NCBI GenBank assembly: GCA_002483345.1
Contig: DLHS01000016.1
Span: forward strand, 21,956 to 85,955
Direction: 5' to 3'
DNA from: Bacteroidetes bacterium UBA7662
GTDB lineage: Bacteria; Bacteroidota; Bacteroidia; UBA7662
Length of the DNA: 64,000 bases
The notes under the pieces are model-generated. The model was not told where the DNA came from and did no database searches. It was given only the letters and a program-made list of their open reading frames with translations. Below, one piece after another: positions 8,224 to 34,749 of the stretch. The translations under genes and the position numbers were made by a program. Numbering within the stretch: the first letter of the stretch is position 1; each line of letters begins with the position of its first letter.

Positions 8224-9471
8224 CTAACGGTTCGGGGCACTCACTTTATCAGGCAAATTCAAATAAAGGAGAGAAGAAAAAATACCAAAGAACAAAACAC
8301 CCCTGTGCCAGAAGAGAATGGTTTCCGTCTGGAGGCAAAGAAAAATAAAGGCGAGAAATGCTACAAAAAGGAGATTTTTTGTCTTGAAACCCCTTCTTAT
8401 GCCGTAAACAAAAATTCCCAGAAGCAGAAAAGACTGAATAAGACCACCATAAAGAGCTGCTTCTACAAACTGGTTATGACTATTGTATTGTCCCACAAGA
8501 CCTGTCTGAAATCCCTTTTGGGTATACACTTCCCTGAGTGCGTCCTTCCCATCTCCGGCACCTGTACCAAACCATAAATTATCCTGTATTACTTCTGCAG
8601 CGCACTCCCATTGGGCCAAACGAACAGTAATGCCATTGTAGTCAGCTGCCTGATAGGTTTTAATATCATAATCCAGACTTTCAGTCACCTCGAGCAATCT
8701 TAGTTGTACCTGGGAGGGTAAAAAACGGAAACTGAGTACGAACAGCAAGACTATGCCCAATAAAACAGCCACCGGCTTCCACCGCTTCAGTGTTATTGCC
8801 TGATAAACAACGGCCAGCCCCAGGGTAAGCAGGGCAGCCAGCATGGTCATTCTGCCATTAAGCATCACCAGACAAGCGAGCAGGCAGATTCCGGCAGTGA
8901 TACTCCCTGTATTTACCCGCCAGTGTTTATCCATCCAGAATTTGACAAGGATACCGAGACTGACTATCAGCTGCAAGCTGAAATACCCCGGATGCATAAT
9001 CGGCTCGGATAAACCCGTGTAGAAAAAGTAAGCGTAATATATGGTCTCATCTATCACCGGTGAATGATAAACGCGCCAGGCTGCGAAGACAAATGCACCG
9101 GCAACTGCCGCCAGCGATGACAGCAACTGTGCTTTGAATAACCACCTTAAATCCGCCTGATCAGGTTTCCTGATTAACAACAGACCAGGAAGCAACACCA
9201 ATAGTAACTGAGTCCCCAGATTCGAGCCGGCATCTGCCCAATTTTGAGTCCATAACAAGCTCAAAAGCTGCCAGCAGAAATAAAACAACAGTCCTCTGAA
9301 CCAGCCATTGTGCCTTAATTCCCGCCAATTATTTGACTTCCAGCCAACCAAAACAAGGAGTATCAGCACTGCCAAAGCATAGCTGCTAAACCAAACCGGT
9401 AAAAACTGCGAAACGATTAAAAGCATCCAGCCGGCACGTATTGGCCAACCCATCGATTCGCTATTCAGCAT
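8224..9471 (-). CDS. Wzy_C / O-antigen ligase-family membrane protein
   Basis: Polytopic membrane protein with a YNSHNQFVEAALYGGLIQ motif (H-N-x-F-x-E...G) characteristic of O-antigen ligase/Wzy_C. It is a lone minus-strand gene inside the plus block. Confidence 0.55.
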   Translation of the reverse strand: MLNSESMGWPIRAGWMLLIVSQFLPVWFSSYALAVLILLVLVGWKSNNWRELRHNGWFRGLLFYFCWQLLSLLWTQNWADAGSNLGTQLLLVLLPGLLLIRKPDQADLRWLFKAQLLSSLAAVAGAFVFAAWRVYHSPVIDETIYYAYFFYTGLSEPIMHPGYFSLQLIVSLGILVKFWMDKHWRVNTGSITAGICLLACLVMLNGRMTMLAALLTLGLAVVYQAITLKRWKPVAVLLGIVLLFVLSFRFLPSQVQLRLLEVTESLDYDIKTYQAADYNGITVRLAQWECAAEVIQDNLWFGTGAGDGKDALREVYTQKGFQTGLVGQYNSHNQFVEAALYGGLIQSFLLLGIFVYGIRRGFKTKNLLFVAFLAFIFLCLQTETILFWHRGVLFFGIFSSLLYLNLPDKVSAPNR

Positions 9472-9532
9472 TTTAGGTTATTTTGCGGTGCCAAAACGTT
9501 GTTCTCAACCATATCAGCTCAAGATACGAAGG

Positions 9533-9925
9533 ATGCAAATTTTACAAGGAGACCTTTTCAAATTCATTAAGTTCGGAGTAGTTGGCTTTTCAGGTCTTCT
9601 GATTGACTTTGCCTTGACCTGGGTACTTAAAGAAAAGGCTCGGATTTCTCCTTATGCTGCCAATGCCGCAGGTTTTTTGGTCGCAGCGAGTTCTAACTGG
9701 TATCTCAACCGTATCTGGTCGTTTGAAAGTCAGAACAGCGAGTTGGTTGAGGAGTATTTTGCCTTTTTAGTTGTCTCTCTGCTTGGTTTGGTCATCAATA
9801 CAGCCGCTTTATTTGTAGGAATAAAAAAATTCAGACTCAATTTCTACCTGGCCAAAGCCATCGCCATCGCCATTACCACCTTCTGGAATTTTTTCGCCAA
9901 TTACTACTATACCTTTGCCGTATGA
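9533..9925 (+). CDS. GtrA-family membrane protein (putative polyprenyl-phosphate-sugar flippase subunit)
   Basis: About 130 aa, about 4 TM, KFGVVGFSGLLIDFALTWVL...NWYLNRIWSFES typical of GtrA. ATG at 9533 preferred over the upstream GTG at 9488. Confidence 0.65.
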   Translation: MQILQGDLFKFIKFGVVGFSGLLIDFALTWVLKEKARISPYAANAAGFLVAASSNWYLNRIWSFESQNSELVEEYFAFLVVSLLGLVINTAALFVGIKKFRLNFYLAKAIAIAITTFWNFFANYYYTFAV

Positions 9926-11343
9926 AGCGGCCGGGTATATATCAACTGATTCTTGCGACTACCCTTGCCGGATTTTTATTACCTAATTTATTTACTACCG
10001 GCATTTTCGGAGATGGATTAATTTATGCCGTCATTTCAAGAAATCTCTCGGAGGGACTAGGCAGTTGGTGGAATCTCTATTACAGTACCTATATTTTCTC
10101 GCCCTTTGCAGAACATCCTCCGCTCCTTTTCTGGGTTGAGTCGATATGGTTCAGGATACTGGGAGATTACCACTTTACCGAGAAAAGCTTCTCTGTATTA
10201 CTTGCAGCAGGCATGATTATCAGTCTTCGTTTTTTCTGGATAAGGATAGCCAGAAATCAGACAGAAAAACAAGCCTGGTGGTTTCCGGTACTGCTATGGA
10301 TTCTGGTCCCGACCATTCATTGGGCGTATCCCAACAATATGCTTGAAAACCTGATGGTTCTTTTTACCAGTTGGGCAGTATGGTCAGGATTTTATAAGCC
10401 TTCAGGCCAAAAGGCGCTCCTGGTAGGTGTGCTTGTTTTTTTAGCCTTTCTTACCAAGGGATTGGTCGGACTATTCCCGTTAGCCGTTTTCGGCATCCGT
10501 TGGTTAAGCCTCCGGGAGGATACCCTTCGTAAAGCACTTTCATGGACCTCTTTGGCGCTGTTTGGCTTTGTATTGTGTATGGCCATCAGTTTAATACCTG
10601 AATCGGCCCGGAATTATTGGATGCAGTATTTTGATGTACAGTTGCTGGCCACCCTGAGGGGCGAACGGCTGGTACAGGATCATGTGGTTGATCTTCCCCG
10701 TTACTATCTGCTCACAAGGCTCTTTACAGAGTTGATTAATCCGCTGCTTTTAACGGGGCTCCTGCTGCTGGGTACCCGCAGGTTCCGGAAAAAAGGAGCT
10801 GTACCTGCGTTAGCGCACGGCTACATCCTGTTCTTTGCACTGGTAGCATGCAGCGCTACTTTACCCTTGCTGATTTCTCCCAAGCAACACTCCTTTTACC
10901 TGATACCTGCCATTCCCTGGTTTATACTGGCTTTGTCGAAAGGTGCCGGGCCTTTTGTTTTTGATATCCTGGCACAATGGCAAAGCCGGCAACTGAGTTA
11001 TAAAATAAGTTACCTTTTTTTCAGTGGTCTTTTTGTGGCCGCCCTGGTCATATGTGGATGGCGGGCGAACCAACCTGGCCGGGATGCAGATTTGATGTCG
11101 GCAGTAGATGTCATAGCACATACAACAGGCTCACACCAGATAGGAATACCCCATTCCCTGATCAGGCACCATAGTTTACATGCCTATTTTCAGCGAAATC
11201 ATCACATCAGTCTCTCCCCCTATGACAGCACAGCAGGTTATTGGATAACTGAAAAGGATAGTATTCCTCCTCCCGGATATAAAACTATGGATATCGGCAT
11301 CTCCGGTTACGACTTGCACCAGCTTAGCGGGCAGCATCGTTAA
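9922..11343 (+). CDS. ArnT/PMT-like GT-C fold membrane glycosyltransferase (GT83/GT39-like)
   Basis: 473 aa polytopic protein. N-terminal GDGLIYAVISRNLSEG resembles the ArnT PDETRYAEISREMLASG motif. FLTKGLVGLFPLAV resembles ArnT VMTKGFLALAVPVL. Overlaps the GtrA stop. Confidence 0.6.
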   Translation: MKRPGIYQLILATTLAGFLLPNLFTTGIFGDGLIYAVISRNLSEGLGSWWNLYYSTYIFSPFAEHPPLLFWVESIWFRILGDYHFTEKSFSVLLAAGMIISLRFFWIRIARNQTEKQAWWFPVLLWILVPTIHWAYPNNMLENLMVLFTSWAVWSGFYKPSGQKALLVGVLVFLAFLTKGLVGLFPLAVFGIRWLSLREDTLRKALSWTSLALFGFVLCMAISLIPESARNYWMQYFDVQLLATLRGERLVQDHVVDLPRYYLLTRLFTELINPLLLTGLLLLGTRRFRKKGAVPALAHGYILFFALVACSATLPLLISPKQHSFYLIPAIPWFILALSKGAGPFVFDILAQWQSRQLSYKISYLFFSGLFVAALVICGWRANQPGRDADLMSAVDVIAHTTGSHQIGIPHSLIRHHSLHAYFQRNHHISLSPYDSTAGYWITEKDSIPPPGYKTMDIGISGYDLHQLSGQHR

Positions 11344-12453: not shown

Positions 12454-12531
12454 AGCTTAAATGTACAAAGAATGATCGAAAGGGATTTTACAGTTACGCC
12501 GTCTGCCCAACGGTATGGGATAAATAATCAT

Positions 12532-12563
12532 AAAAAAACCCGTGCGGGACATGCCTGCACGGG
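12532..12563 (-). terminator. Rho-independent terminator after the capD/pglF-like gene
   Basis: On the minus strand, a GC-rich hairpin (acccgtgcaggc-atgt-cccgcacgggt, with one G-U pair) is followed by a run of 7 T. It lies 20 nt downstream of the stop at 12584. Confidence 0.55.
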
Positions 12564-12583
12564 TATACGCTGATACTTAAAAA

Positions 12584-14545
12584 CTAGTCTCCGAGGTTTT
12601 TATTTCCGTTTTCAGGAGCATCGTTGGCAAATCTCTTTTTATCAATTTCTTCAAAAACAGAGTTATTACTGACGAATTCGGGGACGATTTCTTTGATTTT
12701 GGCAACGATGCGGTGCTCCTCTCCTGTATTCAGAATCTGGCGTAAGACAACCAGTTGCTGAGCCACCTGATCATAATCATAGGCACGTACCTTGCCGATC
12801 ATGATTTTCGGGTGGTGGGTTGGTACCGTATTCTCCTGGACATTCAGCAGCTCTTCATAAAGCTTTTCTCCCGGACGTAGCCCGGTGAAAGTAATCTGAA
12901 TGTCTTTGCCGATGGTTAATCCCGACAGTTTCACCATCTTTTTGGCCACGTCCAGTATTTTGACGGATTCTCCCATGTCGAAGATGAAAATTTCACCTCC
13001 GTTACCCATAACGCCGGCCTCCAGCACGAGCTGGCAGGCTTCGGGTATGGTCATAAAGTACCGGGTGATATCCGGATGGGTTACCGTGATAGGTCCTCCG
13101 GCTTCAATCTGACGTTTAAAAAGTGGTATCACCGAGCCATTAGAACCCAGTACATTGCCAAAGCGGGTGGTCACAAATTTAGTATTGCCTGCATAGGCGT
13201 TGTTGAGGCTTTGCGTATAAATCTCTGCCACCCTTTTGGTAGAACCCATCACATTGGTAGGATTCACAGCCTTATCTGTAGAGACCATCACAAATTTACT
13301 CACCCCAAATTCTACCGAAAGGTCGGCCAGCAACTGCGTACCGAAAACATTTACCAAAACAGCTTCATAGCAGTTGTCTTCCATCAGGGGGACGTGCTTA
13401 TAAGCAGCCGCATGAAAAACATAGTTAGGATGGTACTTTTTGAAGAGGCTTCGCATCCGTTTATCGTTTCGGACATCTGCGATCACAAACCTCACATTGT
13501 GCAGCAGGTGGGCATGCAGTTTGCGTAATTCTATTTCCAGTTCGTAAAGGGGTGATTCAGCCTGGTCAATGAGGATAAGTTGGGCCGGCTTGTAATGAAG
13601 GAGTTGCCGGGCAATCTCTGAACCTATAGAACCTGCCGCACCTGTCACGAAAACAACTTTCTCTTCAATTTCATTGGAGACGTTTTCATTGTCAAGCACT
13701 ATCTCTTCCCGCTGCAGCAGGTCTTCAATTTTGACTGCTTTGATTTGTTTGCTGCTCAATTCTCCGTTGATCCAGTTCTGAACGGGAGGTACATTTTTAA
13801 CCTTGATGTTGTGAATCAGGCATTGATCAATAATCTGCCGTTTCCGGATATTGGAGATATTCTGAATAGAGAGAATTACTTCTTTTACATCCTTCTTCTC
13901 CACAAAATCAGACTCGAGTATACTGGCCGGATAAACACGGACCCCGTGTACTGATTTGAATACCTTGCTTGGATTATCATCGATGAAGGCTACTACATTG
14001 TAGTGCAGGCTATCGTCCTGCAGCAGGGTATTCCGGGTGATGGTGCCTGACTTACCGGCACCGTAGATGATTACATTGACTTTATTTTTGCCCCCCTCAA
14101 ATACCGCCATAAAAACGGCCTTGAAGAGAAATCTGCTGGTTACCAGCAAAAAAACTGCAAAGACGTACTGAATAAAAACTATGGCAAGTCCTACCGAGAG
14201 GGGGCCATAATTATTCGGAGAGAAGCGGTAAGTAAGCAGGTTGAGTAATATAAGGACCCCGGTTGCCAGCGTGGTGGCATAAAACAAACGAACCGCATCT
14301 TCTACCCCCGTATGTCGGATAATACCGCTGAAGGATTTAAACGTAATAAAACCTGCCAGGTATGAAACTGACACTATAGCCAACTGCCTCAGCGCAAGTT
14401 CAAAGTTGATGGCTGTAAGATCAAAATTGAACCGCACCAGATTTGAAATGGCAAAGGCAAATGCCACAATCGCCATGTCAATCAACAATACCATCCACCT
14501 CGAAACGAAGCGGTTGGAGTATATGCGGAGGTACTTTTGAAACAT
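12584..14545 (-). CDS. Membrane-anchored UDP-GlcNAc 4,6-dehydratase (CapD/PglF/WbpM family)
   Basis: 653 aa. N-terminal TM helices, Rossmann VFVTGAAGSIGSEIARQLL, polysacc_synt_2 architecture. Confidence 0.9.
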   Translation of the reverse strand: MFQKYLRIYSNRFVSRWMVLLIDMAIVAFAFAISNLVRFNFDLTAINFELALRQLAIVSVSYLAGFITFKSFSGIIRHTGVEDAVRLFYATTLATGVLILLNLLTYRFSPNNYGPLSVGLAIVFIQYVFAVFLLVTSRFLFKAVFMAVFEGGKNKVNVIIYGAGKSGTITRNTLLQDDSLHYNVVAFIDDNPSKVFKSVHGVRVYPASILESDFVEKKDVKEVILSIQNISNIRKRQIIDQCLIHNIKVKNVPPVQNWINGELSSKQIKAVKIEDLLQREEIVLDNENVSNEIEEKVVFVTGAAGSIGSEIARQLLHYKPAQLILIDQAESPLYELEIELRKLHAHLLHNVRFVIADVRNDKRMRSLFKKYHPNYVFHAAAYKHVPLMEDNCYEAVLVNVFGTQLLADLSVEFGVSKFVMVSTDKAVNPTNVMGSTKRVAEIYTQSLNNAYAGNTKFVTTRFGNVLGSNGSVIPLFKRQIEAGGPITVTHPDITRYFMTIPEACQLVLEAGVMGNGGEIFIFDMGESVKILDVAKKMVKLSGLTIGKDIQITFTGLRPGEKLYEELLNVQENTVPTHHPKIMIGKVRAYDYDQVAQQLVVLRQILNTGEEHRIVAKIKEIVPEFVSNNSVFEEIDKKRFANDAPENGNKNLGD

Positions 14546-14709: not shown

Positions 14710-15849
14710 TCAACCAGGGAAACAAGCCTTAACTGCCTTCACAACCCGGTCAAGGTCGTGGGTAGTCAGGTTAGATCCTGATGGCAGACACAAGCCCTTC
14801 TCAAAGAGTTTTGCTGATACTTCGCCACCATAATAAGGAGCAGTTTCGAAAACCGGTTGCATATGCATGGGCTTCCAAAGCGGTCTCGATTCAATGTTTT
14901 CTTTTTCAAGCGCCAACCGGATATTTTCACGGCTTATGCCTCCGGTAACAGCCGGGTCGACCAGAATAGTTGTAAGCCAGCGGTTTGTGAAACTCCCGGC
15001 TGGTTCAGTCACAAAAGAAATTCCTTCGATATCCCGGAAGGCATTTACATAATAGGCATAATTAGCACGACGCTGTTGAACCCTATCGCTGAGAACAAGC
15101 ATCTGCCCGCGACCAATACCTGCGCAAACATTACTCATACGATAGTTATACCCAATCTCACTGTGCTGATAATGGGGTGCAGCATCTCTTGCCTGTGTAG
15201 CCAGGAAACGAGCCTTTTCCACCAGTTTCGCATCGGCAGATATCAAGGCGCCACCACCGGAGGTAGTGATAATTTTGTTTCCATTAAAACTGAGCACACC
15301 CATTTTTCCGAATGTCCCGCAGGCCTGATGCTGGTAGGTGGACCCCAGTGCTTCTGCCGCATCTTCTACGATATCAATGCCGAATTCATTGGCAATCGCC
15401 GTGATTTCATCCATTTTTGCAGGCATCCCATAGAGGTGAACAGGGATAATAGCCTTTGGCTTTTTGCCTTTGGCGATGCGATCTAAAATAGCTTCCCTCA
15501 AAACCTTTGGATCCATATTCCAGGTATCTGGTTCTGAATCGATAAAAACCGGCAAAGCTCCGAGATAAGCAATCGGATTTGCAGAGGCTGAAAATGTAAA
15601 ACTCTGGCAAATTACTTCATCACCAGCCTTTACTCCCAGCAGAATTAATGCAAGGTGGATGGCCGAAGTCCCGCTTGAAAGCGCAGCAGCACTGGGTGAT
15701 TTTGTAAAATCACACAAATCCTGCTCAAATCCGTTTACATGCGGACCCAACGGCGCTATCCAGTTGGTATCAAAGGCATCTTTGACAAATTTAAACTCCT
15801 CCAGTCCCATATGGGGTGATGAAAGCCAGATTTTTGGTGATTCAGACAT
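14710..15849 (-). CDS. DegT/DnrJ/EryC1 PLP-dependent sugar aminotransferase (PglE-like, UDP-4-amino-sugar)
   Basis: WLSSPHMGLEEFKFVKDAF...LSSGTSAIHLALILLGVKAGDEVICQSFTF is a DegT-family signature. ATG at 15849 chosen (MSESPK). Confidence 0.85.
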   Translation of the reverse strand: MSESPKIWLSSPHMGLEEFKFVKDAFDTNWIAPLGPHVNGFEQDLCDFTKSPSAAALSSGTSAIHLALILLGVKAGDEVICQSFTFSASANPIAYLGALPVFIDSEPDTWNMDPKVLREAILDRIAKGKKPKAIIPVHLYGMPAKMDEITAIANEFGIDIVEDAAEALGSTYQHQACGTFGKMGVLSFNGNKIITTSGGGALISADAKLVEKARFLATQARDAAPHYQHSEIGYNYRMSNVCAGIGRGQMLVLSDRVQQRRANYAYYVNAFRDIEGISFVTEPAGSFTNRWLTTILVDPAVTGGISRENIRLALEKENIESRPLWKPMHMQPVFETAPYYGGEVSAKLFEKGLCLPSGSNLTTHDLDRVVKAVKACFPG

Positions 15850-16222
15850 ACTTATATTGAAATTTAAAAGCAAGAAAAACAACCACGGCGAAAATGGGTG
15901 TGGTGATTAACCGGTGTAAGGTGGCGCAAAAATTTTGTAGTGATTCAAATTCTAAACTAAAGATATAGAGTATGAAGAGTAATAAATAGAAAACAATGCT
16001 GATAAGTGTCAACAACCATGTCATTTTATGACCCAACATGAGAACGGCATATATAAGATAACTTCCCCATGCAATCAGAAGTACCCTGGCGAAAAGCACA
16101 CTATGTGGGTAAGTGCGAAAGAGAAAACTCCAATCCGGAATCAGGGAGAGTGCCTGCACTCCATAACTCATGATAAACAAGAATATGGCTAAACAAACTT
16201 TAAACAGCCTGCTCCTTAACAT
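15842..16222 (-). CDS. Small 4-TM membrane protein, putative exosortase-F-associated protein
   Basis: 126 aa, very hydrophobic. Tightly coupled (23-nt overlap) to the putative XrtF gene, a pairing characteristic of XrtF systems. The assignment is by context and size. Confidence 0.4.
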   Translation of the reverse strand: MLRSRLFKVCLAIFLFIMSYGVQALSLIPDWSFLFRTYPHSVLFARVLLIAWGSYLIYAVLMLGHKMTWLLTLISIVFYLLLFILYIFSLEFESLQNFCATLHRLITTPIFAVVVFLAFKFQYKYV

Positions 16223-16745
16223 GAGATCCGGGATTCGCTGTCGACTTCAACCAAAACAACCAGATGAGGAAAACACATGTATACATGATGGCGGTAAAGG
16301 CATACTTGTGATAATAATAAAAGAGGGTAGCGTTTTCTAAAGCAATGTTTAGCAGCAATACCAGTCTGATAAGGTTAAGCAAATGAATACTTAACAAGCC
16401 TATCAGGATATACCCGAATGTCCGTTTTGTCCATTTCCAGAATGCGACAAAAAAAGACAAAAACAAACCGGCTACGATAAAACCATTACACCCCTCAAAA
16501 ACTGAAACGGCGGGAACACCTGCAAGCCGGATTGTAAGGGCATCACGCTCTACAACCAAATCAACCGCCCGTGAATCAAATACCTGCTGTATTTCCGCGA
16601 CTTGCAAAGCAACGGAATAGGTAATAGGGTCAGGAACGCCTTCGTATGCAGATAAATAAATACTGTACCCTAACGAAAAAACCAGATAAAACAGGCCAAA
16701 TCTGACGACAAACCAAAGAGCCGGATATTTATCAGGATTCATCAT
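16200..16745 (-). CDS. xrtF: Putative exosortase family protein (short XrtF-like)
   Basis: 181 aa polytopic protein with Cys in EGCNGF followed by conserved Arg/Asn-containing helices (LLNLIRLVLLLNI). Short length and Bacteroidota context fit XrtF. Not verifiable without HMMs. Confidence 0.45.
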   Translation of the reverse strand: MMNPDKYPALWFVVRFGLFYLVFSLGYSIYLSAYEGVPDPITYSVALQVAEIQQVFDSRAVDLVVERDALTIRLAGVPAVSVFEGCNGFIVAGLFLSFFVAFWKWTKRTFGYILIGLLSIHLLNLIRLVLLLNIALENATLFYYYHKYAFTAIMYTCVFLIWLFWLKSTANPGSHVKEQAV

Positions 16746-17373
16746 GAAACTTTATAGGCTTGGCTGGTATGCCGACTGCAGTACAATAGGGAGGCAAACT
16801 TTTCGACACTACCGCACCTGAACCGACGATTGTATCTTCTCCTATTTCAAGCTGATTGATAATTTTTGCACCCGTTCCAACATATACGCCAGCCTTAATA
16901 ACCACCTCGCCCGATATATTTACCCCTGGCATAAAGGAGCTGTAGTCACCAATTATAGTGTCATGCCCTACTGTGCAGGCCAAATTGAGCAGCGTATGTT
17001 TTCCAAGAGAAATATCGACCGTTATCAGACAACCTGCACATATAATACTTCCATCTCCGATGCTCACCCGGTCTCCAATCAACACATTGGGGTGTATAAG
17101 CGTAGCGAATTTTGCTTTCGGGCCAAGGCGCTGAGCCACATTTCGTTTCGACTTGGGATTCCCCAATGCTAACACAAAATACGCTTCTGAATAATCCTTG
17201 GCCGAATCTATGCCTCCAATAACCTTTGTACTTCCAATGGCGGTTCCGGCTTCAAGGGATTCGTCCAGGAAACCCAATAAATCCCAGGTGAGTTGACGCG
17301 TGTTTATCTGGCTTATAAGCATCTCCACTTCTCTTCCAAACCCTCCTGCACCAATAATAATAACCTGCTTCAT
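16732..17373 (-). CDS. Sugar N-acetyltransferase, NeuD/PglD/PglB family (left-handed beta-helix)
   Basis: N-terminal Rossmann-like VIIIGAGGFGREV followed by hexapeptide repeats. 213 aa, typical for PglD/NeuD. Confidence 0.8.
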   Translation of the reverse strand: MKQVIIIGAGGFGREVEMLISQINTRQLTWDLLGFLDESLEAGTAIGSTKVIGGIDSAKDYSEAYFVLALGNPKSKRNVAQRLGPKAKFATLIHPNVLIGDRVSIGDGSIICAGCLITVDISLGKHTLLNLACTVGHDTIIGDYSSFMPGVNISGEVVIKAGVYVGTGAKIINQLEIGEDTIVGSGAVVSKSLPPYCTAVGIPAKPIKFHDES

Positions 17374-17984
17374 GTTTTTGATTTATTGCCTGTAAAATAC
17401 GTTGCAGTCGCAGCCCCCTGGGCATTAATTCCTTCCCGTATCAGCACTTTTTTAAAGGTCAGAAAAACTATTTTCAAGTCCAGCATAAAAGAGAAGTTAT
17501 CGACATACCAAACATCCAAAGCAAACTTTTCCTCCCAGGAAAGTGCATTCCGCCCGTTAATTTGTGCCCATCCGGTAATCCCAGGTCTTACATTATGTCT
17601 TTTTGATTGCTCCGGATTGTACAGGGGGAGATACTGAACAAGTAACGGTCTTGGTCCGATCAGACTCATTTCTCCCTTCAGCACATTAAAAAGTTGCGGG
17701 AGTTCATCCAGAGATGTTTTCCTGATAAAGCTACCCAGTCTGGTCATTCGTTTTTCATCAGGAAGCAGATTACCCTGCTCATCCCTGAGGTTGCTCATGG
17801 TTCTGAGTTTGACTAATCTGAATATCCGACTGTTTTTACCTGGTCTCAATTGCATGAAAAAGGGAGATTCTCCATCATAAAGGTAAATGAGCAATCCTAA
17901 AAACAGTATCACAGGTAATCCTAAAACAAGAACCAGGAAGGCCAGTGTGAAATCAATGAAACGTTTTCCAAATCTCTTGTACAT
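17370..17984 (-). CDS. Undecaprenyl-phosphate sugar phosphotransferase (PglC/WbaP-C-terminal 'bacterial sugar transferase')
   Basis: 204 aa with one N-terminal TM. Hallmark DELPQLFNVLKGEMSLIGPRP motif. Confidence 0.9.
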   Translation of the reverse strand: MYKRFGKRFIDFTLAFLVLVLGLPVILFLGLLIYLYDGESPFFMQLRPGKNSRIFRLVKLRTMSNLRDEQGNLLPDEKRMTRLGSFIRKTSLDELPQLFNVLKGEMSLIGPRPLLVQYLPLYNPEQSKRHNVRPGITGWAQINGRNALSWEEKFALDVWYVDNFSFMLDLKIVFLTFKKVLIREGINAQGAATATYFTGNKSKT

Positions 17985-19198: not shown

Positions 19199-20304
19199 GA
19201 TTCATAAAATTCCCGGATACAGCTTGCAACATAATTAATTTGTTCCTCCGTGAGCTCAGGATAAATAGGCAGGGACAGAATTTGCGACTGATAAGACGTA
19301 GCTACCGGGAAATCTGCCGGCTGATGTCCGAGATACTGATAGGCTTTAAGATTTGGCAGGGCAGTTGGGTAGTGGATGGCCGTTTCAACCTGCTTTCTTT
19401 TAAGGAACGTCATCAGGTCATCTCTTCTTTGGGCCCGAATTACATAAAGGTGAAAGGAGTGTTTGGAGTCAGGTCTTCTTGCTGGTGTCACAATTTGCGG
19501 AATGCCTTGTAAAGCTTTGTCGTACAAACTTGCACAGCGAATCCTTGCCTCTGTCCAATCGAGTATGTAAGGTAATTTTGCCGAAAGGATGGCTGCCTGC
19601 AAACCATCTAACCGGCTGTTGATTCCTTCAATCTGATGTTCATGTTTTTGGAGTGCCCCGTGTCGTGCATACATTTTGCATTTTTCAGCCAATTCGGCAT
19701 TGTTGGTAAGTATGCATCCTGCATCGCCATAGGCCCCCAGATTTTTACCAGGGTAAAAGCTGAAAGAAGCGGCAATACCAAAACTACCCACTCGTTTTCC
19801 CCCAAGCTCCGAAAAATGTGATTGTGCACAGTCTTCAATAACAGGAATACCATATTTATCTGCAATTGCGCAAATAGCTGTAATGTTAGCCGCCTGTCCT
19901 TGCAGATGTACCGGAATAATTGCTTTGGTCCGAGGGGTTATCCTTGCCTCAAGCATCGTTTCATCCATGCTATAATAAACAGGATCTATATCAACGAAAA
20001 CAGGCTTGGCACCTGTTTGGGAAATGGTTTCTGAAGAAGAAATCCAGCTGTTCGCCACGGTAATTACTTCGTCACCGTTCCCGATACCCAACATTTTCAT
20101 AATAATGTACAGAGAATCAGTACCATTGGCAACTGAAATACAATGCTTGATACCATAAAGGGATGAAAAGGCAGCTTCAAAATCTGTAACTGGTTTACCT
20201 CCAATAAAAGCTGTGTTTTCAATAACGTCAGAAATAGCGCTGTCTATTTCTTTCTTTATAGAATAATACTGTGCTTTTAAATCAACAAAAGGAACTTTTT
20301 GCAT
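19195..20304 (-). CDS. DegT-family aminotransferase (WbpE-like, UDP-2-acetamido-3-amino-2,3-dideoxy-hexuronate forming)
   Basis: VPFVDLKAQYYSIKKEIDSAI...CISVANGTDSLYI is a DegT/WbpE signature. Operon context with WbpD-like and WbpB-like genes. Confidence 0.8.
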   Translation of the reverse strand: MQKVPFVDLKAQYYSIKKEIDSAISDVIENTAFIGGKPVTDFEAAFSSLYGIKHCISVANGTDSLYIIMKMLGIGNGDEVITVANSWISSSETISQTGAKPVFVDIDPVYYSMDETMLEARITPRTKAIIPVHLQGQAANITAICAIADKYGIPVIEDCAQSHFSELGGKRVGSFGIAASFSFYPGKNLGAYGDAGCILTNNAELAEKCKMYARHGALQKHEHQIEGINSRLDGLQAAILSAKLPYILDWTEARIRCASLYDKALQGIPQIVTPARRPDSKHSFHLYVIRAQRRDDLMTFLKRKQVETAIHYPTALPNLKAYQYLGHQPADFPVATSYQSQILSLPIYPELTEEQINYVASCIREFYES

Positions 20305-20309
20305 ATAAG

Positions 20310-20765
20310 TTATTTAATTTTTTTGGCAGGATTTCCTGCATAAACTCCTGGCTGATGAATATCTTTTGTAACTACTGCCCCGGCACCAATAACCACATTA
20401 TCACATATGGTAACAGGAAGTATCGTTGCATTACTGCCAATGCTCACCTGATTCCCTATACGTGTTGACTTCCACAAGGTCTTGTCGCCTCTTGCCGGAC
20501 CACCTTTTGCAAAAAGGTCATTGATAAACATGACTCCATGACCGATAAAACAATCATCGCCAATATTAACCAGCTCACAAATAAATGAATGTGACTGGAT
20601 TTTAGTACGATGACCTATGATCACGTCTTTCTGGATCTCTACGAAAGGGCCAACAAAACAAGCATCTCCAATGGTACAGCCATATATATTAACAGGTTCA
20701 ACGATTTTGACTGATGAGCCAAACTGAACGTCTTTGATGGCAGAAGTATATAATGTAGGGCTCAT
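20310..20765 (-). CDS. Hexapeptide-repeat N-acetyltransferase (WbpD-like)
   Basis: 151 aa left-handed beta-helix protein. Adjacent to the WbpB/WbpE homologues. Confidence 0.7.
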   Translation of the reverse strand: MSPTLYTSAIKDVQFGSSVKIVEPVNIYGCTIGDACFVGPFVEIQKDVIIGHRTKIQSHSFICELVNIGDDCFIGHGVMFINDLFAKGGPARGDKTLWKSTRIGNQVSIGSNATILPVTICDNVVIGAGAVVTKDIHQPGVYAGNPAKKIK

Positions 20766-21778
20766 GACGCATTTTGTTTAACCGATTGATAAATCTTATC
20801 AATGATTTCAACAGTTTTCAGTCCCTCAAAAGAATTGGTAGAAATTGTGCTTCCATTGTTCAGAACATCTATTACATTTTCATATACCTTATCATGATTT
20901 GACATGGAACCCTGGTACTTACCATAGTTATTTGCCGTATTTCCAACAGGCAAATCTTTAAATTCAAATCCATCAATGTTCTGGTATTCCAACTCATTCA
21001 GATACTGACCTCCGATTTTTACGGTTCCTTTTTCCGCAAAAATGGTCAGTGATCCTTCCATATTTTTGCCATAGCTGTTAACAGTGTAATTTACAGTACC
21101 TATGGCACCGTTGTAGAACTGCATCACAACTGCGCCTGTGTCTTCAAATTCAATCACACCTTCATGGGCATAATTACCCATAAAAGCATGTACTTGTTTT
21201 ACATCACCCACTATCCAATAAAGTAAATCAATAAAATGGCTGAACTGAGTGTACAGCGTTCCGCCATCAAGTGCTTTAGTTCCTTTCCAGGAATTTTCGT
21301 AATAATCAAAGTTCCTGTTCCAGAAACAGCTGAGCTGAACACTGTAAATCTTACCCATTATACCCTCATCAATGGCCTTCTTGACTGCAGCAACCGGTGG
21401 ATTAAATCTGTTCTGTTTTATGGCAAACAAGCGTTTGTTATTTTTTTCCGCAGTTTTAATCATTTCACCACAATCATAAACACTGATTGCCATAGGTTTT
21501 TCACATAAGACATGATATCCTGCATTCAATGCTGCAATGGCGTGCTGAGCATGGAGCCCGTTAGGGCTGCTTATGGTCACAACATCTACATCGGGTTTTG
21601 CAGTCAGGAGTTCTTCTATCGAAAAAAACACCCGGGCATCATATTTCTTGCCGAGAGAATTAGCCTTTTCAGGTTCTATATCGCATACTGCCACTAACTC
21701 CCCTAGTCTTGCTATATGTTCGGCATGGCGTTGTGCAATCCGTCCACAACCAACAATTGCAAATTTAATTTTTTTCAT
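20762..21778 (-). CDS. Gfo/Idh/MocA-family oxidoreductase (WbpB-like UDP-GlcNAcA 3-dehydrogenase)
   Basis: KFAIVGCGRIAQRHAEHI N-terminal Rossmann of the Gfo/Idh/MocA family. 338 aa. Confidence 0.8.
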   Translation of the reverse strand: MKKIKFAIVGCGRIAQRHAEHIARLGELVAVCDIEPEKANSLGKKYDARVFFSIEELLTAKPDVDVVTISSPNGLHAQHAIAALNAGYHVLCEKPMAISVYDCGEMIKTAEKNNKRLFAIKQNRFNPPVAAVKKAIDEGIMGKIYSVQLSCFWNRNFDYYENSWKGTKALDGGTLYTQFSHFIDLLYWIVGDVKQVHAFMGNYAHEGVIEFEDTGAVVMQFYNGAIGTVNYTVNSYGKNMEGSLTIFAEKGTVKIGGQYLNELEYQNIDGFEFKDLPVGNTANNYGKYQGSMSNHDKVYENVIDVLNNGSTISTNSFEGLKTVEIIDKIYQSVKQNAS

Positions 21779-22905
21779 ATACTGGGCTTTTCAAGGTATA
21801 AATTAAGGTAGGTCTTGGCAATTTGAGTCCATGAGAATGGTGCGACCGCCTGAACAGCTTCCCTACTTGCCGTTTCGAAATTGTCAGCTATTTTTTTGAT
21901 AGCTTCAATACTCTCGTTCATATTGTTTGGTTGTACCGGAATTGCAAAGCTACTCTTTTCAAAATAACCATCTATTCCCTGCCCTGCAGTATGTATAACA
22001 GGTAAACCCTGACTCAGCGCCTCCAAATAAACCAAACCAAATGTTTCAAGCTTACTGATCATGACAAAAATATCATGTTCTCCATAAAGCGCCCGCATGG
22101 CAGTGGCTCCTTCAACCTTTCCGACAAATTTCACAAAACTAAAGTCTTCTTGCTTTAAAGCCTTTAAAACACTTTCATGACCATCTCCGCCCCCTCCGGC
22201 AAGCGTGAGTGTTACAGGACGTTCTCCAGATAGTGCTTTTATCACGCTAAGAAGAAGTAAAATGTTTTTATTGAAGGTAAAATCACCTACGTACAATATC
22301 CTCAATGGATTATGGGGTACAGGCCGGGATTCCTGATTTTCAAACCAATCAGGAGTTAATCCGTTTGGTATCACAGTCGCATTCAAAATACGCTCCTTCA
22401 GTTGCCCGGCAATATATTTATCCGCAACCTGCTTCCGATACGACGGTGTAACAAATATGCACTGCCTGGCATTTGACAGAATATTTTGTCCATGTCCTCT
22501 CAGATGAATCATATATTTAAAAAACATATTTACATCTGTATTCCTGACTGCTGTAATATATGGGATTGAAAATTGCTGCTTTAATTTCAAGGCAACACCC
22601 CCGTCACTGAATAAGAAGTGAGCATGGATGATGTCTATTCCTTTTATTTCCACTTTGGACAGAACATCCTCATAAATGGTATTGATTTTTGATTTGTAAA
22701 GTATACGGTGTTTTGGCTCAAGAATATGGGCATAAATAACAACTGTATCCGGTACATTAGGGATATCGTACTTCCCAACTTCTGCTGCTGTCCTGACAGG
22801 TACATAAATGGTTTGACGGATTCCCATTTGTGCAAGCGACAGAAAAAGTTCTTTGTACAGCTTTTGTCTGGAATAATCGGAGCACAAATGAAGCACATGT
22901 ATCAT
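21775..22905 (-). CDS. Glycosyltransferase family 4
   Basis: 376 aa GT-B protein. Overlapping start and stop with neighbours. Confidence 0.75.
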   Translation of the reverse strand: MIHVLHLCSDYSRQKLYKELFLSLAQMGIRQTIYVPVRTAAEVGKYDIPNVPDTVVIYAHILEPKHRILYKSKINTIYEDVLSKVEIKGIDIIHAHFLFSDGGVALKLKQQFSIPYITAVRNTDVNMFFKYMIHLRGHGQNILSNARQCIFVTPSYRKQVADKYIAGQLKERILNATVIPNGLTPDWFENQESRPVPHNPLRILYVGDFTFNKNILLLLSVIKALSGERPVTLTLAGGGGDGHESVLKALKQEDFSFVKFVGKVEGATAMRALYGEHDIFVMISKLETFGLVYLEALSQGLPVIHTAGQGIDGYFEKSSFAIPVQPNNMNESIEAIKKIADNFETASREAVQAVAPFSWTQIAKTYLNLYLEKPSI

Positions 22906-24032
22906 CTGGAGTAATAGCCCTTTTCTCTTAGTTTATTTACAAAAGACTTTAGCTTTTGTACTCTTTCAAAATTATTGGGGTAATCTCTGAACGTTTTAGG
23001 AGGCAGAGCCATGATAGCATCAAAAGATGCTTCATTTAACTCAAATTTCTTGATAACAAAATCCTTGTCCTGCCTGAAGAGTTTTTCATCATAACCAGGC
23101 AATTCCATTTGTTTCAGCGCATCCTCCCGGCTTATCTGTCCCGACTTAATCAAATCTGATAAATGAGCTTTGCGTTTATCTATTCCAAATTTCCGGGGCA
23201 GAATATAACCCTGAAAAAATCTTGTATAGACCGACTCATAGTGTTTACCTCCGTAATAAACCCAGCCAAGCTCAGATTGAAGAATCTCCATCACGGCATC
23301 CTTCTTATAATCTACATAGTTTAATATTGAAATTACTTTAATTCGTTTTACAATATTCCACCAGAACAAATCAAAGAAAGTGTATTTGGGATATCGGTTC
23401 AATTTAGCTGTCCCGAAAATCTTTTGAATTGACTTAATATACTTCCAATCACTGTGTCCATATGCCCATCCGGGTACACTAATGGATTCTGCCGCGAAAT
23501 TCATTCCATTTATAATATACTTGATTCCCCTCTTATTAGCCTCCCTGAACAGCAAGGCATTGATGGCATGATCTGTCGGGATTTCACCATCCGGTGTGGA
23601 AGCCTTTAAAAATGAAAGCTGCAAATCTTTAAATTCTTCCCAATCAATGACATAAGTATATAAGTCAATGCCCAGGTGATCCAGTGTCTTTTCTATATTA
23701 CTTACAGCTAATTCAGAATTCCATCCGTTATCAAAGTGAATGGCCAGGGGCCGGATGCCCAGTTGTTTGGTTAAATAGGCCACATAGGTGCTGTCAACAC
23801 CTCCGCTCACGCCAATGATACAATCGTATTCCTTCCCGTTACCGGATGCCTTTATTTTTTCTATCAGTATGCTGAGTTTCTGATCAGCCTCCTGTCCGCT
23901 AAATACCCTTCTATGGAGTTCGCTGTTATACCTCAGACAATGATTGCAGATTCCCTTGCTGTCAAATGTAATGTCCGGATCAGAAGTATCCATTATACAC
24001 TGGGTACATATTTTATAGGCGAGATCTTTCAT
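22902..24032 (-). CDS. N-acetyl sugar amidotransferase (WbpG/WbuX/PseA-like PP-loop ATPase)
   Basis: N-terminal Cys cluster (CTQC...CNHC) and PP-loop IIGVSGGVDSTYVAYL. 376 aa. Immediately followed by HisH/HisF paralogs as in wbpG-hisF-hisH and wbuXYZ clusters. Confidence 0.8.
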   Translation of the reverse strand: MKDLAYKICTQCIMDTSDPDITFDSKGICNHCLRYNSELHRRVFSGQEADQKLSILIEKIKASGNGKEYDCIIGVSGGVDSTYVAYLTKQLGIRPLAIHFDNGWNSELAVSNIEKTLDHLGIDLYTYVIDWEEFKDLQLSFLKASTPDGEIPTDHAINALLFREANKRGIKYIINGMNFAAESISVPGWAYGHSDWKYIKSIQKIFGTAKLNRYPKYTFFDLFWWNIVKRIKVISILNYVDYKKDAVMEILQSELGWVYYGGKHYESVYTRFFQGYILPRKFGIDKRKAHLSDLIKSGQISREDALKQMELPGYDEKLFRQDKDFVIKKFELNEASFDAIMALPPKTFRDYPNNFERVQKLKSFVNKLREKGYYSR

Positions 24033-24784
24033 AGCGAATTTAGATTTGCAATTTCATCCTGAGTGGGGTAGTTTATCAAAACAGCCCTGTGTTTTCCTTT
24101 ATATACAAAGAAGCTGCCAGCTGCCACTGAAGAAGCTTTCCCAATTTTGAGTGCATCAGCAATGTGAGAAATATTACCTGCCCCGCCACTGGCTACAATT
24201 GGCACATTTACGGCATTGGCAACACTTTTAGTAAGCTCCAGATCAAAACCAGACATACTTCCTTCCTTATCAACAGACTGAATAATGATTTCTCCTACTC
24301 CGGCTGCAACTACCTGTCTGGCAAAATCTTCCGGTGTCCATTTGTGTTTAACGGTACCGCTTTTGCTGTACACCTGATAGGAACCAAAAAAAGACTTTTT
24401 GGCATCTATGGAGACTACGATGCTTTGATTGCCATAAATGGAAGCGGCCTTTGCAAGTAATTCAAAATCGAAGGCAGCAGAATTCATAATAACTTTTTCA
24501 ACTCCCAGATCAAAAATCCTGCGTATCTGCTCAATATTCCTGATCCCCCCCCCATAACCAACCGGCATGAAACATTCACTTACAATATCTTTTATCCAGG
24601 CATAGTTGGGCTCTCTTTGTTGCGTACTGGCTTCAATATCACATAATACCAATTCATCAACCTCTTTTTCGTTGAATATCCTGACAGCATTGATCGGATC
24701 TCCAATGTAAACAGGGTTCTTGAAATTAACAGTCTTCACCAATCCCTTCCCTTTGAGCAACAATACCGGTATAAGTCTTATCAT
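24029..24784 (-). CDS. HisF-like imidazole glycerol phosphate synthase cyclase subunit paralog (WbuZ-like)
   Basis: MIRLIPVLLLKGKGLVKTVNF matches the HisF N-terminus. ATG at 24784 sits 2 nt after the hisH-like stop. The upstream in-frame Met at 24862 would overlap. Confidence 0.85.
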   Translation of the reverse strand: MIRLIPVLLLKGKGLVKTVNFKNPVYIGDPINAVRIFNEKEVDELVLCDIEASTQQREPNYAWIKDIVSECFMPVGYGGGIRNIEQIRRIFDLGVEKVIMNSAAFDFELLAKAASIYGNQSIVVSIDAKKSFFGSYQVYSKSGTVKHKWTPEDFARQVVAAGVGEIIIQSVDKEGSMSGFDLELTKSVANAVNVPIVASGGAGNISHIADALKIGKASSVAAGSFFVYKGKHRAVLINYPTQDEIANLNSL

Positions 24785-24786
24785 TT

Positions 24787-26570: not shown

Positions 26571-26595
26571 AGGACAATAGGTAATAAAATTGAAC

Positions 26596-27537: not shown

Positions 27538-27544
27538 GGTAGTC

Positions 27545-34596: not shown

Positions 34597-34749
34597 AGTA
34601 TTTCCAAAAATTATAGTAGGGTGTAATTAGAATTGATTTAAGAGCGGGCAAATCCTTATGCTCCAGAAATCTACCGGTACGCCAGGCAATGAAAAAATTC
34701 TTGGCGTGGGTTTTAAAAGAGGAGGGCGGTTGCTATTATCGATTAAAGT

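Follow-up and report, generated by a model that had tools for sequence, protein, structure and literature searches.

A divergent XrtF-type exosortase and its membrane partner in a Pgl-like amino-sugar operon of a Bacteroidota polysaccharide locus

Introduction

Exosortase genes generally sit in EPS loci, an association for which a mechanistic reason is lacking, and for the exosortase XrtF neither a sorting signal nor a target has been reported (PMC12188702). The XrtF system of F. johnsoniae comprises Fjoh_1448 and Fjoh_1449 (models TIGR04128 and TIGR04127), an exosortase of ~180 aa with EGCN, NxxR and H motifs and a 4-TM partner of roughly 130-150 aa that overlaps its stop codon. Deletion of either xrtF or the partner gene abolishes both biofilm and zorb formation, and the phenotype profile of the two is the same as that of mutants in a polysaccharide-locus DegT aminotransferase and in porU and porZ of the T9SS (PMC10936215). 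Surface colonisation, too, is lost in F. johnsoniae without XrtF. The pair examined here, from a 64,000-nucleotide contig stretch of Bacteroidetes bacterium UBA7662 (the window, meaning the whole of the DNA analysed), is alike in length, motifs and gene overlap, and its partner has the same C-terminal motif, [HR]R-L-I-x-x-P...AF-x-[YF]-Q. The genomic context differs: Flavobacteriaceae XrtF genes are accompanied by GAF, DUF8199, HMA/MauE and TonB receptor genes and no Pgl genes, whereas that of the window lies within a Pgl operon.

In this respect the window is closer to loci of the Cytophagales type, such as those of Ohtaekwangia kribbensis (L019) and Fulvivirga imtechensis (L022), in which overlapping genes run in the order PglC-(PglD')-PglD-XrtF-partner-PglE, with PglF downstream. 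These loci also carry a second PglD paralogue and, between PglE and PglF, a giant T9SS-CTD protein of ~1100-2000 aa, with PF18962 present in all 33 of the 33 giant proteins. Both additions are absent from the window and from its nearest relative, a locus in a Bacteroidota MAG (L001). The Cytophagales partners pass TIGR04127, and their XrtF proteins are 31-42% identical to that of the window.

Three further exosortase-like systems invite comparison. The XrtA/EpsH-PEP-CTERM system likewise places an exosortase in an EPS locus with a Bac_transf priming transferase; the signature domain is common to both, and the PglC of the window weakly matches TIGR03013, the sugar transferase model of the XrtA system. 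XrtA, however, is long, with 8 TM segments and many PEP-CTERM clients, whereas the XrtF of the window is short, with 4 TM segments, a separate 4-TM partner and no visible PEP-CTERM protein. ArtA of Haloferax volcanii belongs to the same superfamily as the window XrtF and keeps the Cys and Arg, of which C173 and R214 are essential, and it resolves onto a lipid acceptor (PMC9263693). It is archaeal, much longer, recognises a PGF-CTERM signal and works without a partner protein. XrtX and the XrtX-associated protein (NF046081/NF046082) form a sister pair of short exosortase and partner.

The T9SS offers a parallel in chemistry. PorU carries out a sortase-like step that amide-links the protein C-terminus to the amino-sugar-containing glycolipid A-LPS (PMC7468200). 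The window, like this system with its Wbp/Vim linker, has WbpB/WbpE/WbpD-like genes, and Cytophagales XrtF modules adjoin a T9SS cargo gene; PorU is an outer-membrane-associated protease unrelated to XrtF, and the likeness is one of analogy only. Our literature search found no paper joining exosortases to bacillosamine-type pathways, and none joining XrtF to the T9SS beyond their common phenotype.

A divergent member of the XrtF family

An initial annotation of this DNA had described a 181-aa polytopic protein with an exosortase-like Cys/Arg/Asn arrangement, and this description has held. The ORF passes the curated cutoff of the NCBI XrtF model TIGR04128, if narrowly (101.9 bits against 90, E 4.4e-29; founding Flavobacteriaceae members score ~240), and no other exosortase subfamily scores higher. 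It also matches the signature domain TIGR04178 over residues 80-166 (33.6 bits, cutoff 23). The score for XrtX is a near tie at 99.4 bits, yet XrtX is ruled out by its curated cutoff of 170 bits, which neither the window protein nor any surveyed relative approaches. An exhaustive HMMER search returned 627 relatives at E<=1e-3 and 111 at E<=1e-10, while word-indexed single-sequence searches returned only the query itself and one 36% match for XrtF, and only itself for the partner. XrtF was the top model for 66/66 of the closest relatives, 2 of which also matched the XrtA model; the nearest, L001, scores 91.8 bits.

Four TM segments are apparent from hydropathy, and two XrtF-family alignments show little or no variation at C86, N87, N124, R127 and H146. 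The Cys and Arg that the initial annotation had wished to see confirmed by alignment are both kept: across 66 sequences C86 is at least 90% conserved and R127 without exception, another 49 sequences show no change at either position, and the two are spaced 41 residues apart, as are C173 and R214 of ArtA (a comparison by spacing). An AlphaFold2 model (pLDDT 90.4) has helices at residues 8-32, 89-101, 107-137 and 139-170; no solved structure in the PDB resembles it by sequence or fold (best Foldseek E 0.94). We regard C86, R127 and H146 as putative catalytic residues. The positive-inside rule, together with the orders of the gene fusions described below, predicts that XrtF is N-in/C-in with these three residues at the periplasmic face.

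The partner is less readily placed. Hydropathy of the 126-aa ORF shows four hydrophobic segments, and an ORF that, like this one, overlaps the XrtF stop codon is present in 77/80 loci. The initial annotation had looked to the exosortase-F-associated model to recognise it; in the event TIGR04127 gave no match to the window ORF even at E<=10, although 45/47 ORFs at the same position in related loci match it. Four of these 47 family members weakly match NF046082. Profile-profile comparison was more informative, hhalign relating the window and L001 partners to the 45 TIGR04127 members with 87.8% probability (E 3.3e-6) over residues 3-125. The two partners are 39% identical to one another (E 7e-14); a leave-out HMM gave the L001 partner 20.5 bits and the window partner a marginal 9.6, barely over the best of 1000 shuffles.

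The window partner keeps Q23, R46, H103-R104, P109 and Q122, while the nearly invariant N-D pair of the family, present in the F. johnsoniae system, is replaced by I-A. The C-terminal block is the best conserved part of the partner family, with a mean conservation of 0.73 where other regions have 0.3-0.55, and is kept in Flavobacteriaceae. On profile comparison, position and C-terminal motif, the ORF appears to be a divergent TIGR04127-family member. By family membership and residue conservation, the pair is an XrtF-type exosortase with its probable cognate partner, and as far as sequence can tell a divergent representative of an already known system. The related loci come nearly all from Bacteroidota (80 loci); three are MAG bins labelled Burkholderiales, Agrobacterium or uncultured bacterium.

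The Pgl-like operon and its conservation

All four of the PglF/E/D/C families are present and co-oriented in the window (Table 1). The genes from PglC to PglE overlap successively by 4, 14, 23 and 8 nt, and PglF follows after a 164-nt gap. Of the two starts considered for PglE, the ATG at 15849 is likelier than the TTG at 15882, and it gives an overlap of 8 nt (ATGTCTGA) with the partner. The best equivalog for this aminotransferase is LegC (TIGR04181, 394 bits, just below the cutoff of 420), and the PglF of the window is 90% identical to its L001 homologue. The strong hairpin after PglF, the only terminator-like element of this run, was found by direct folding, in which 0/200 shuffles were equally stable; it exceeds the loop limit of a generic terminator scan. 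An Rfam search of the window gave no match.

Table 1. Features of the XrtF-Pgl unit in the window, in order of transcription
Feature	Coordinates	Strand	Evidence and remarks
PglC-like small monotopic phosphoglycosyl transferase (priming)	17370..17984	minus	PF02397 Bac_transf 208.9 bits; ATGA overlap with PglD
PglD-like amino-sugar N-acetyltransferase	16732..17373	minus	TIGR03570 195.7 bits (cutoff 160.8), PF17836 PglD_N; 14-nt overlap with XrtF
XrtF-family short exosortase	16200..16745	minus	181 aa, 4 TM plus periplasmic helix/three-stranded insert (predicted); TIGR04128, TIGR04178, AF2 model
Divergent XrtF-associated membrane protein (candidate)	15842..16222	minus	126 aa, ~4 TM; hhalign, position, motif
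PglE/LegC-like (DegT) sugar 4-aminotransferase	14710..15849	minus	PF01041 329 bits
PglF/WbpM/CapD-like membrane-anchored UDP-GlcNAc 4,6-dehydratase	12584..14545	minus	PF02719 Polysacc_synt_2 400 bits; last gene of unit
Intrinsic-terminator-like hairpin and U7 run	12531..12564 (hairpin 12538-12564)	minus	-20.9 kcal/mol, z -4.16

The earlier picture of this operon needs some revision. The pair does lie between a PglD-like acetyltransferase and a PglE-like aminotransferase, as the TIGR03570/PglD_N and DegT/LegC-like matches bear out. XrtF had been placed directly after PglC; the actual order is PglC, PglD, XrtF. The pair had also been called translationally fused through a 23-nt overlap; the overlap, at the XrtF stop, is as described and probably couples their translation, but each is a gene of its own. 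The operon was drawn from 17984 to 12584, and its end after PglF agrees with the terminator-like hairpin, whereas its start does not stand: the co-directional array reaches upstream to ~43 kb and forms one large Wzx/Wzy polysaccharide locus, in which a WaaL/Wzy_C-like protein, acyltransferases and the WbpB/WbpE/WbpD-like proteins are also encoded.

We compared the window with about 80 other genomes or loci, the search for which was seeded with a 9-sequence subset, the 66-sequence alignment being too diverse, and counted synteny in 61 loci. The xrtF-pgl synteny that the initial annotation had suggested surveying is strongly conserved: in 57/61 loci XrtF has Pgl-like genes no more than a few kb away, PglD is directly upstream in 50/61 and the full gene order is the same in 34/61. 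A PglC- or WecA-type priming transferase is found within 5 kb of XrtF in 49/57 loci. This linkage persists through local rearrangements and through XrtF divergence to ~35% identity (on an NJ tree that is only indicative). A coupling of XrtF to glycan priming is well supported in these Pgl-embedded loci. The linkage belongs to the Cytophagales-type clade and to the window's own lineage and is absent from Flavobacteriaceae XrtF loci, so that the link with glycans may be clade-specific or indirect.

Natural gene fusions tie the components more closely still. A 385-aa PglC-XrtF fusion (Bac_transf plus Exosortase_EpsH; MBS1777390.1 is an example) was recovered from three NCBI MAG proteins and, independently, from one SRA assembly, in every case with a partner ORF behind it, and an apparent 332-aa XrtF-partner fusion is present on 8 contigs as one sequence cluster. 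An assembly or frameshift artefact was rejected for PglC-XrtF, whose reading frame is unbroken and which turns up in all three NCBI entries as well as in the separate SRA assembly. The order of either fusion is compatible with an N-in/C-in XrtF and would place the Q, R and HR..P residues of the partner on the periplasmic side as well. Together with the conserved synteny, the two fusions argue for coupling, and the view that XrtF is no mere passenger in the pathway is upheld.

Proposed function

We propose, with a probability of roughly 60%, that XrtF and its partner form an inner-membrane complex, coupled to PglC and PglF/E/D, that processes a protein or glycan and joins it to a glycan or glycolipid. 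What the data show is the coupling within the operon, a synteny conserved across loci and the fused genes; the complex, its topology, its activity and the nature of its donor and acceptor we infer, as follows. The XrtF of the window would be a putative inner-membrane Cys/Arg(/His) transpeptidase-like enzyme, united with its partner in one complex in which the conserved polar residues would all face the periplasm. This complex would be co-translated with the PglC-type transferase and with PglF/E/D, and its coupling to them would be physical as well as functional. The Pgl enzymes would make a priming sugar of the 2,4-diacetamido-2,4,6-trideoxyhexose type (diNAcBac-like) and load it onto undecaprenyl phosphate, the first step towards a Wzx/Wzy polysaccharide. 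At the periplasmic face, the complex would process an envelope protein or a lipid-linked glycan and attach it to a glycan or glycolipid assembled on the priming sugar, an acceptor that would be analogous to lipid II for sortase, lipid for ArtA and A-LPS for PorU.

XrtF may, in short, act on a glycan-linked or glycoprotein substrate. Several points count against this favoured reading: a search for sorting-signal substrates in the window and the loci gave none, the XrtF genes of Flavobacteriaceae lie apart from Pgl genes, the window XrtF scores just over its cutoff and equally well on XrtX, and its partner falls outside TIGR04127 and has lost the N-D pair. Moreover, if PglD acetylates the 4-amine, there would be no free sugar amine to serve as nucleophile. 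We know of no XrtF for which enzymatic activity has been demonstrated. The nearly constant embedding of XrtF beside a priming transferase throughout a large and deeply diverged clade and the two types of fusion direct the search for XrtF biochemistry to the Und-P-linked priming sugar, and the giant T9SS proteins adjoining the Cytophagales module are concrete client candidates. Another neighbour, the DUF8199 protein of Flavobacteriaceae, was rejected as a sorting-signal client; it is Cys-rich and N-terminally anchored, without a C-terminal TM segment.

A more specific form of the proposal can be entertained only tentatively. Here, the complex would be docked on the priming transferase, and its acceptor in a sortase-like reaction that anchors or modifies surface proteins would be the Und-linked diamino-sugar glycan or some lipid made from it; the giant T9SS-secreted proteins of Cytophagales would be candidate targets. 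If true, this would be a new way of anchoring to glycolipids in Bacteroidota and would supply the partner chemistry missing for XrtF. There is also a more radical variant, in which XrtF would have glycan-lipids and no protein at all to process.

Alternatively, the surface proteins processed by XrtF and its partner may have no chemical connection with the Pgl sugar, the operon reflecting nothing beyond a common need for both in envelope or biofilm formation. The general residence of exosortases in EPS loci fits such co-regulation (PMC12188702; PMC10936215), as do the functioning of Flavobacteriaceae XrtF without adjacent Pgl genes and the far lower conservation of XrtF and partner (45% and 39% identity to L001) than of the flanking enzymes (63-90%). 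Yet PglC and XrtF are joined in frame repeatedly, in assemblies independent of one another, and the tight overlaps and a linkage that survives rearrangement and deep divergence exceed what co-regulation needs, and we consider this explanation unlikely.

Glycan-specific Wzx/Wzy-type proteins typically evolve fast, and XrtF and its partner evolve as fast as these. This fits a different possibility, that the pair acts on a lipid-linked glycan and not on a protein at all, whether by transferring an acyl or aminoacyl group to the amino sugar, by releasing or ligating the glycan, or by serving the Und-PP-sugar of PglC in an accessory or flippase-like capacity. The strongest and most direct link of XrtF, fusion included, is indeed to the priming transferase. 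Further, no protein substrate or signal has been reported for XrtF (PMC12188702), and we found no substrate ending in a sorting signal in the window or related loci. Set against this, the characterised superfamily members (ArtA, and XrtA by genetics) all process proteins (PMC9263693), Wzx, Wzy, a WaaL/Wzy_C-like protein and acyltransferases are already encoded in the locus, and the chemistry would be without precedent; a purely glycan-directed role is rather improbable.

The initial annotation had seen no PEP-CTERM-like protein in the window, and our scan of C-termini agrees, the partner being the only window ORF that ends in a motif, a TM segment and a basic tail. This raises the question of whether the partner is itself a dedicated, one-to-one substrate of XrtF, with HRLIxxP, the TM helix and Q plus basic tail as its sorting signal; such a role would agree with its C-terminal block being better conserved than the rest and retained even in Flavobacteriaceae. 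We nevertheless think it very unlikely, since the XrtF-partner fusion and the further conserved polar residues at the edges of other TM segments (Q23, R46, N/D) favour a subunit, and a 4-TM protein would be an unusual sortase client. The phenocopy of the xrtF deletion by the partner deletion in F. johnsoniae is compatible with a substrate or a subunit role.

Finally, a pair of generic small membrane proteins (of CPBP, VanZ or holin-like type) that matches by composition could appeal to an XrtF score merely 12 bits over the cutoff, to the lack of a Pfam match for either ORF, to a weak holin hit (E 0.036) as the partner's only listed NCBIfam match and to the 9.6 bits from the leave-out HMM, but it is effectively refuted by the E-value for TIGR04128, the signature model passed, the invariant Cys/Arg/His, the 111 relatives at E<=1e-10 and a partner related by hhalign over its full length and conserved in position; CPBP and VanZ are absent from the Pfam matches, neither ORF having any at E<=0.01, and XrtF has no similar PDB fold.

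The window pair is the most divergent yet seen in the Pgl arrangement, and as such it would help to tell the truly indispensable residues of the partner from the others.

An XrtF exosortase and its divergent partner

The 181-aa protein is almost certainly an XrtF-family exosortase. The initial annotation had proposed this identity. On TIGR04128, NCBI's curated XrtF model, the protein scores 101.9 bits (cutoff 90, E 4e-29), and on TIGR04178, the exosortase/archaeosortase signature, it clears the cutoff with 33.6 against 23 bits. XrtX scored nearly as high as XrtF (99.4 bits), but its cutoff of 170 is far off. Pfam, CPBP and VanZ included, gave no match, which speaks against a generic membrane protein of those types; that the pair is not an exosortase at all is highly improbable.

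By word-indexed search the protein is nearly an orphan. Exhaustive HMMER searching with XrtF recovered 627 relatives (111 at E<=1e-10), the closest just 44% identical, and XrtF was the best-matching exosortase model for all 66 relatives aligned. The putative catalytic Cys and Arg are in place: all 66 aligned sequences have R127, and at least 90% share each of C86, N87, N124 and H146. A second alignment, with 49 sequences that NCBI in many cases names XrtF, shows all five residues as invariant. The 41-residue spacing between C86 and R127 matches that between Cys173 and Arg214 of archaeosortase ArtA, both of which are essential (PMC9263693). A confident AlphaFold2 model (pLDDT 90.4, pTM 0.83) comprises TM1 (8-32), an extracytoplasmic helix and three-stranded sheet (40-82), a short helix bearing C86, and three more TM helices; the positive-inside rule would place C86, R127 and H146 together at the periplasmic face. 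Neither sequence comparison nor fold comparison (best Foldseek E 0.94) turned up a similar solved structure.

The 126-aa partner matched no family in NCBIfam or Pfam, including TIGR04127, the curated model for the XrtF-associated protein, and a word-indexed search returned no relatives. Confirmed XrtF loci numbered 305 in a scan of species-representative genomes, and the analysis used the best 80; in 77 of these 80 an ORF lies just 3′ of XrtF, mostly of 130-150 aa with about four TM helices, overlapping or abutting the XrtF stop. TIGR04127 members account for 45 of 47 such ORFs aligned, the exceptions being the window partner and, by elimination, that of L001, the closest locus, from a Bacteroidota MAG. 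These two are 39% identical (E 7e-14). An HMM built without either sequence gave the L001 partner 20.5 bits and the window partner 9.6 bits, above 1000 shuffles, yet marginal, and profile-profile comparison of the two with the other 45 matched residues 3-125 at a probability of 87.8% (E 3e-6). The family-invariant Q23, R46, R104, P109 and Q122 and the near-invariant H103 are retained in the window partner, and a near-invariant N-D pair is missing. The best-conserved block of the family is C-terminal ([HR]R-L-I-x-x-P, a TM helix, A-F-x-[YF]-Q and a basic tail), and is kept even in Flavobacteriaceae. We file the cognate 126-aa protein as a divergent member of the XrtF-associated family; in a curated annotation pipeline it would stay 'hypothetical'. 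Its only public gene call (P0003) is a 109-aa protein starting at M18, the 126-aa form being absent from the protein collection; the family alignment favours the longer form, with its predicted TM1 and the XrtF overlap.

Embedding in a Pgl-type operon

The two ORFs overlap as originally described, and both are probably translationally coupled with PglC-, PglD- and PglE-like genes. Since a hairpin followed by U7 lies after PglF, the WecA-like gene beyond it is probably a separate transcription unit. The co-directional array had been thought to be bounded at 17984; in fact it extends upstream as far as about 43 kb and makes up a large polysaccharide locus of the Wzx/Wzy type.

Features of the XrtF operon, its neighbourhood and related loci (window coordinates unless a locus is named)
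Feature	Position	Strand	Remark
PglC-like	17370..17984	-	ATGA overlap with PglD-like gene
PglD-like	16732..17373	-	14-nt overlap with XrtF ORF
XrtF ORF, 181 aa	16200..16745	-	23-nt overlap with partner ORF
Partner ORF, 126 aa	15842..16222	-	8-nt ATGTCTGA overlap with PglE-like gene
PglE-like	14710..15849	-	15849 is the most likely start
PglF-like	12584..14545	-	164-nt gap after PglE-like gene
GC-rich hairpin, then U7	12531-12564		just past PglF; -20.9 kcal/mol, z = -4.2
WbuX, AglZ/HisF2, HisH	22902-25404	-	
PMT_2/ArnT-like GT-C glycosyltransferase	9922-11343	+	beyond WecA-like gene
GtrA-like	9488-9925	+	beyond WecA-like gene
Second Wzy_C/O-antigen-ligase-like	8224-9471	-	past WecA-like gene
341-aa ORF	26596-27621	-	no Pfam match
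525-aa ORF	6641-8218	+	no Pfam match
PglC-XrtF fusion P0034 (MBS1777390.1)	L084:8001-9158, L085:4597-5754		retrieved loci
Giant T9SS-CTD proteins	L019:12158-16942, L022:12141-17210		examples; 31 more loci

Conservation of the linkage

The best 80 of the 305 loci are mostly from Cytophagales (Chryseolinea, Ohtaekwangia, Fulvivirga, Marivirga, Cyclobacteriaceae, Roseivirgaceae), with some other Bacteroidota. Synteny was counted, after annotation of locus ORFs against the window proteins, in the 61 of these 80 with at least 3 kb upstream and at least 2 kb downstream. PglD-, PglE- or PglC-like genes lie within a few kb of XrtF in 57 of the 61, a PglD-like gene is immediately upstream in 50, and the complete PglC..PglD-XrtF-partner-PglE order is found in 34. 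A priming phosphoglycosyl transferase (PGT) of PglC or WecA type occurs no more than 5 kb from XrtF in 49 of 57 loci. The linkage outlasts local inversions and gene reshuffling (e.g. L013, L026, L037, L051, L057, L073) and persists where XrtF has diverged to about 35% identity; loci outside the pattern are of the Schleiferiaceae/Cryomorphaceae type.

Flavobacteriaceae XrtF has a conserved context of its own: a divergent GAF-domain gene, then XrtF, partner, DUF8199 (Cys-rich, N-terminally anchored), HMA/MauE and a TonB-dependent receptor. Three genomes inspected separately (L081, Lacinutrix; L082, Flavobacterium fluviatile; L083, Thalassobellus) had no Pgl genes at these loci, and the context hints at a metal-related link. 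XrtF HMM scores parallel this split, at about 240 bits in Flavobacteriaceae against 115-141 in the Pgl-embedded Cytophagales type, 102 in the window and 92 in L001. A third arrangement, GT4-...-WecA-like-PglD-like-GT2-XrtF-partner, occurs in Bacteroidia MAGs (L003:7607-10967, L002, L005, L006, L020, L067); in this group the priming transferase linked to XrtF is therefore of the WecA type, not the PglC type.

A rough NJ tree pairs the window XrtF with that of L001; both have long branches and fall outside the main Cytophagales clade. The two loci are collinear over 14 genes, with flanking enzymes 63-90% identical; XrtF (45%) and partner (39%) are by far the most diverged of the block (15842-16745 against L001:9971-10884) and the fastest-evolving part of the operon. 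Their divergence relative to the flanks resembles that of glycan-specific Wzx/Wzy genes.

Natural fusions and a model for XrtF

The exhaustive search returned two unusually long matches, both natural fusions. P0034 (385 aa; MBS1777390.1, MBS1588061.1 and MBS1739046.1 at NCBI, plus an independent SRA assembly) joins a PglC-like Bac_transf domain (7-202) in frame to XrtF (208-370), with all XrtF motifs and the PGT motif D-E-L-P-Q intact. At both retrieved loci a 144-aa ORF overlaps its stop by 17 nt, the L084 copy scoring 48.8 bits on our own partner HMM, and a NusG/UpxY-Wza-Wzc export locus adjoins the fusion gene. In P0059 (332 aa, 8 contigs in Logan assemblies) XrtF (3-170) is continued by a domain of the partner family (181-317; 29.4 bits, E 2e-10). 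Both domain orders are consistent with the topologies predicted for XrtF (N-in/C-in) and for the partner (N-in). Of all the evidence that priming transferase, XrtF and partner work as a single assembly, these fusions are the strongest.

We put the probability that XrtF is functionally coupled to glycan priming at roughly 80%; pure co-regulation of the pair with the Pgl genes is unlikely. The initial annotation had suggested a glycan-linked or glycoprotein substrate for the exosortase, which would then be no passenger in the Pgl module: its observation is confirmed, and its interpretation supported. XrtF and the partner may form an inner-membrane complex with its active site facing the periplasm, tethered to PglC at the cytoplasmic face. 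This complex would act on an envelope protein, or on the lipid-linked glycan itself, and the processed substrate would be joined to a glycan, or to a glycolipid, whose priming sugar is of the diNAcBac type. Transpeptidation to glycan is a tentative proposal, at somewhat less than even odds. A role on glycan rather than protein is as unlikely as pure co-regulation. That the partner is a dedicated XrtF substrate is suggested by its C-terminus, which resembles a sorting signal, and weakened by the XrtF-partner fusion; we consider it improbable.

The window pair is an unusually divergent member of the known XrtF system. Because EPS loci are the general setting of exosortases, and their associated families include Bac_transf transferases (PMC12188702), the Pgl linkage is an extension of a known theme, not a break with it; the XrtA-system sugar transferase model TIGR03013, which the window's PglC matches weakly, is another sign of the association. 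In the searchable literature (Haft 2012, the founding paper, and NCBI's family descriptions lay outside it, and the synteny may already be known), we did not find the tight PglD-XrtF-partner-PglE microsynteny, PGT-XrtF or XrtF-partner fusions, giant T9SS proteins beside XrtF, or the split between Pgl-embedded and Flavobacteriaceae-type contexts. The locus is ordinary by family, yet informative, opening the question of the XrtF target to experiment.

Giant T9SS proteins beside XrtF

In Cytophagales loci a giant ORF (about 1100-2000 aa) directly follows PglE and precedes PglF; of the 52 loci whose downstream sequence is long enough, 29 have it. Behind the N-terminal signal peptide of these ORFs comes a recurrent G-x-W-N-x(3)-T-W-like motif, and the T9SS C-terminal sorting domain PF18962 was found in 33 of 33 giant proteins. 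The giant protein is missing from the window and L001 modules, and no T9SS CTD was detectable anywhere in the window. In F. johnsoniae, deletion of xrtF or the partner gives the phenotype profile of porU and porZ T9SS mutants, and a mutant in a DegT aminotransferase of a polysaccharide locus shares that profile (PMC10936215). In P. gingivalis and T. forsythia, an amino-sugar linker of the Wbp/Vim pathway attaches T9SS cargo to a glycolipid by an amide bond (PMC7468200). By analogy, a connection of XrtF to giant T9SS proteins and amino sugars may be taken as a lead, not a result.

The surrounding polysaccharide locus

The upstream locus encodes a TviB/WbpA-like dehydrogenase, WbpB/E/D-like proteins, Wzx, Wzy, an MBOAT protein, Wza, Wzz and several GT4 glycosyltransferases. 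It also holds an acetamidino-sugar modification module, the WbuX N-acetyl-sugar amidotransferase with AglZ/HisF2 and HisH paralogues, all three passing curated cutoffs. The genes at 8224-11343 are a possible lipid-carrier-dependent glycan-transfer module. The 341-aa and 525-aa ORFs lie inside or adjoining the locus, the former also having no NCBIfam match at E<=1e-10. GC content is 0.43-0.45 in the XrtF module and 0.38-0.40 at 20000-36000, the centre of the locus, against 0.45-0.52 in the flanks; such a low-GC stretch is typical for horizontally exchanged glycan-specific genes.
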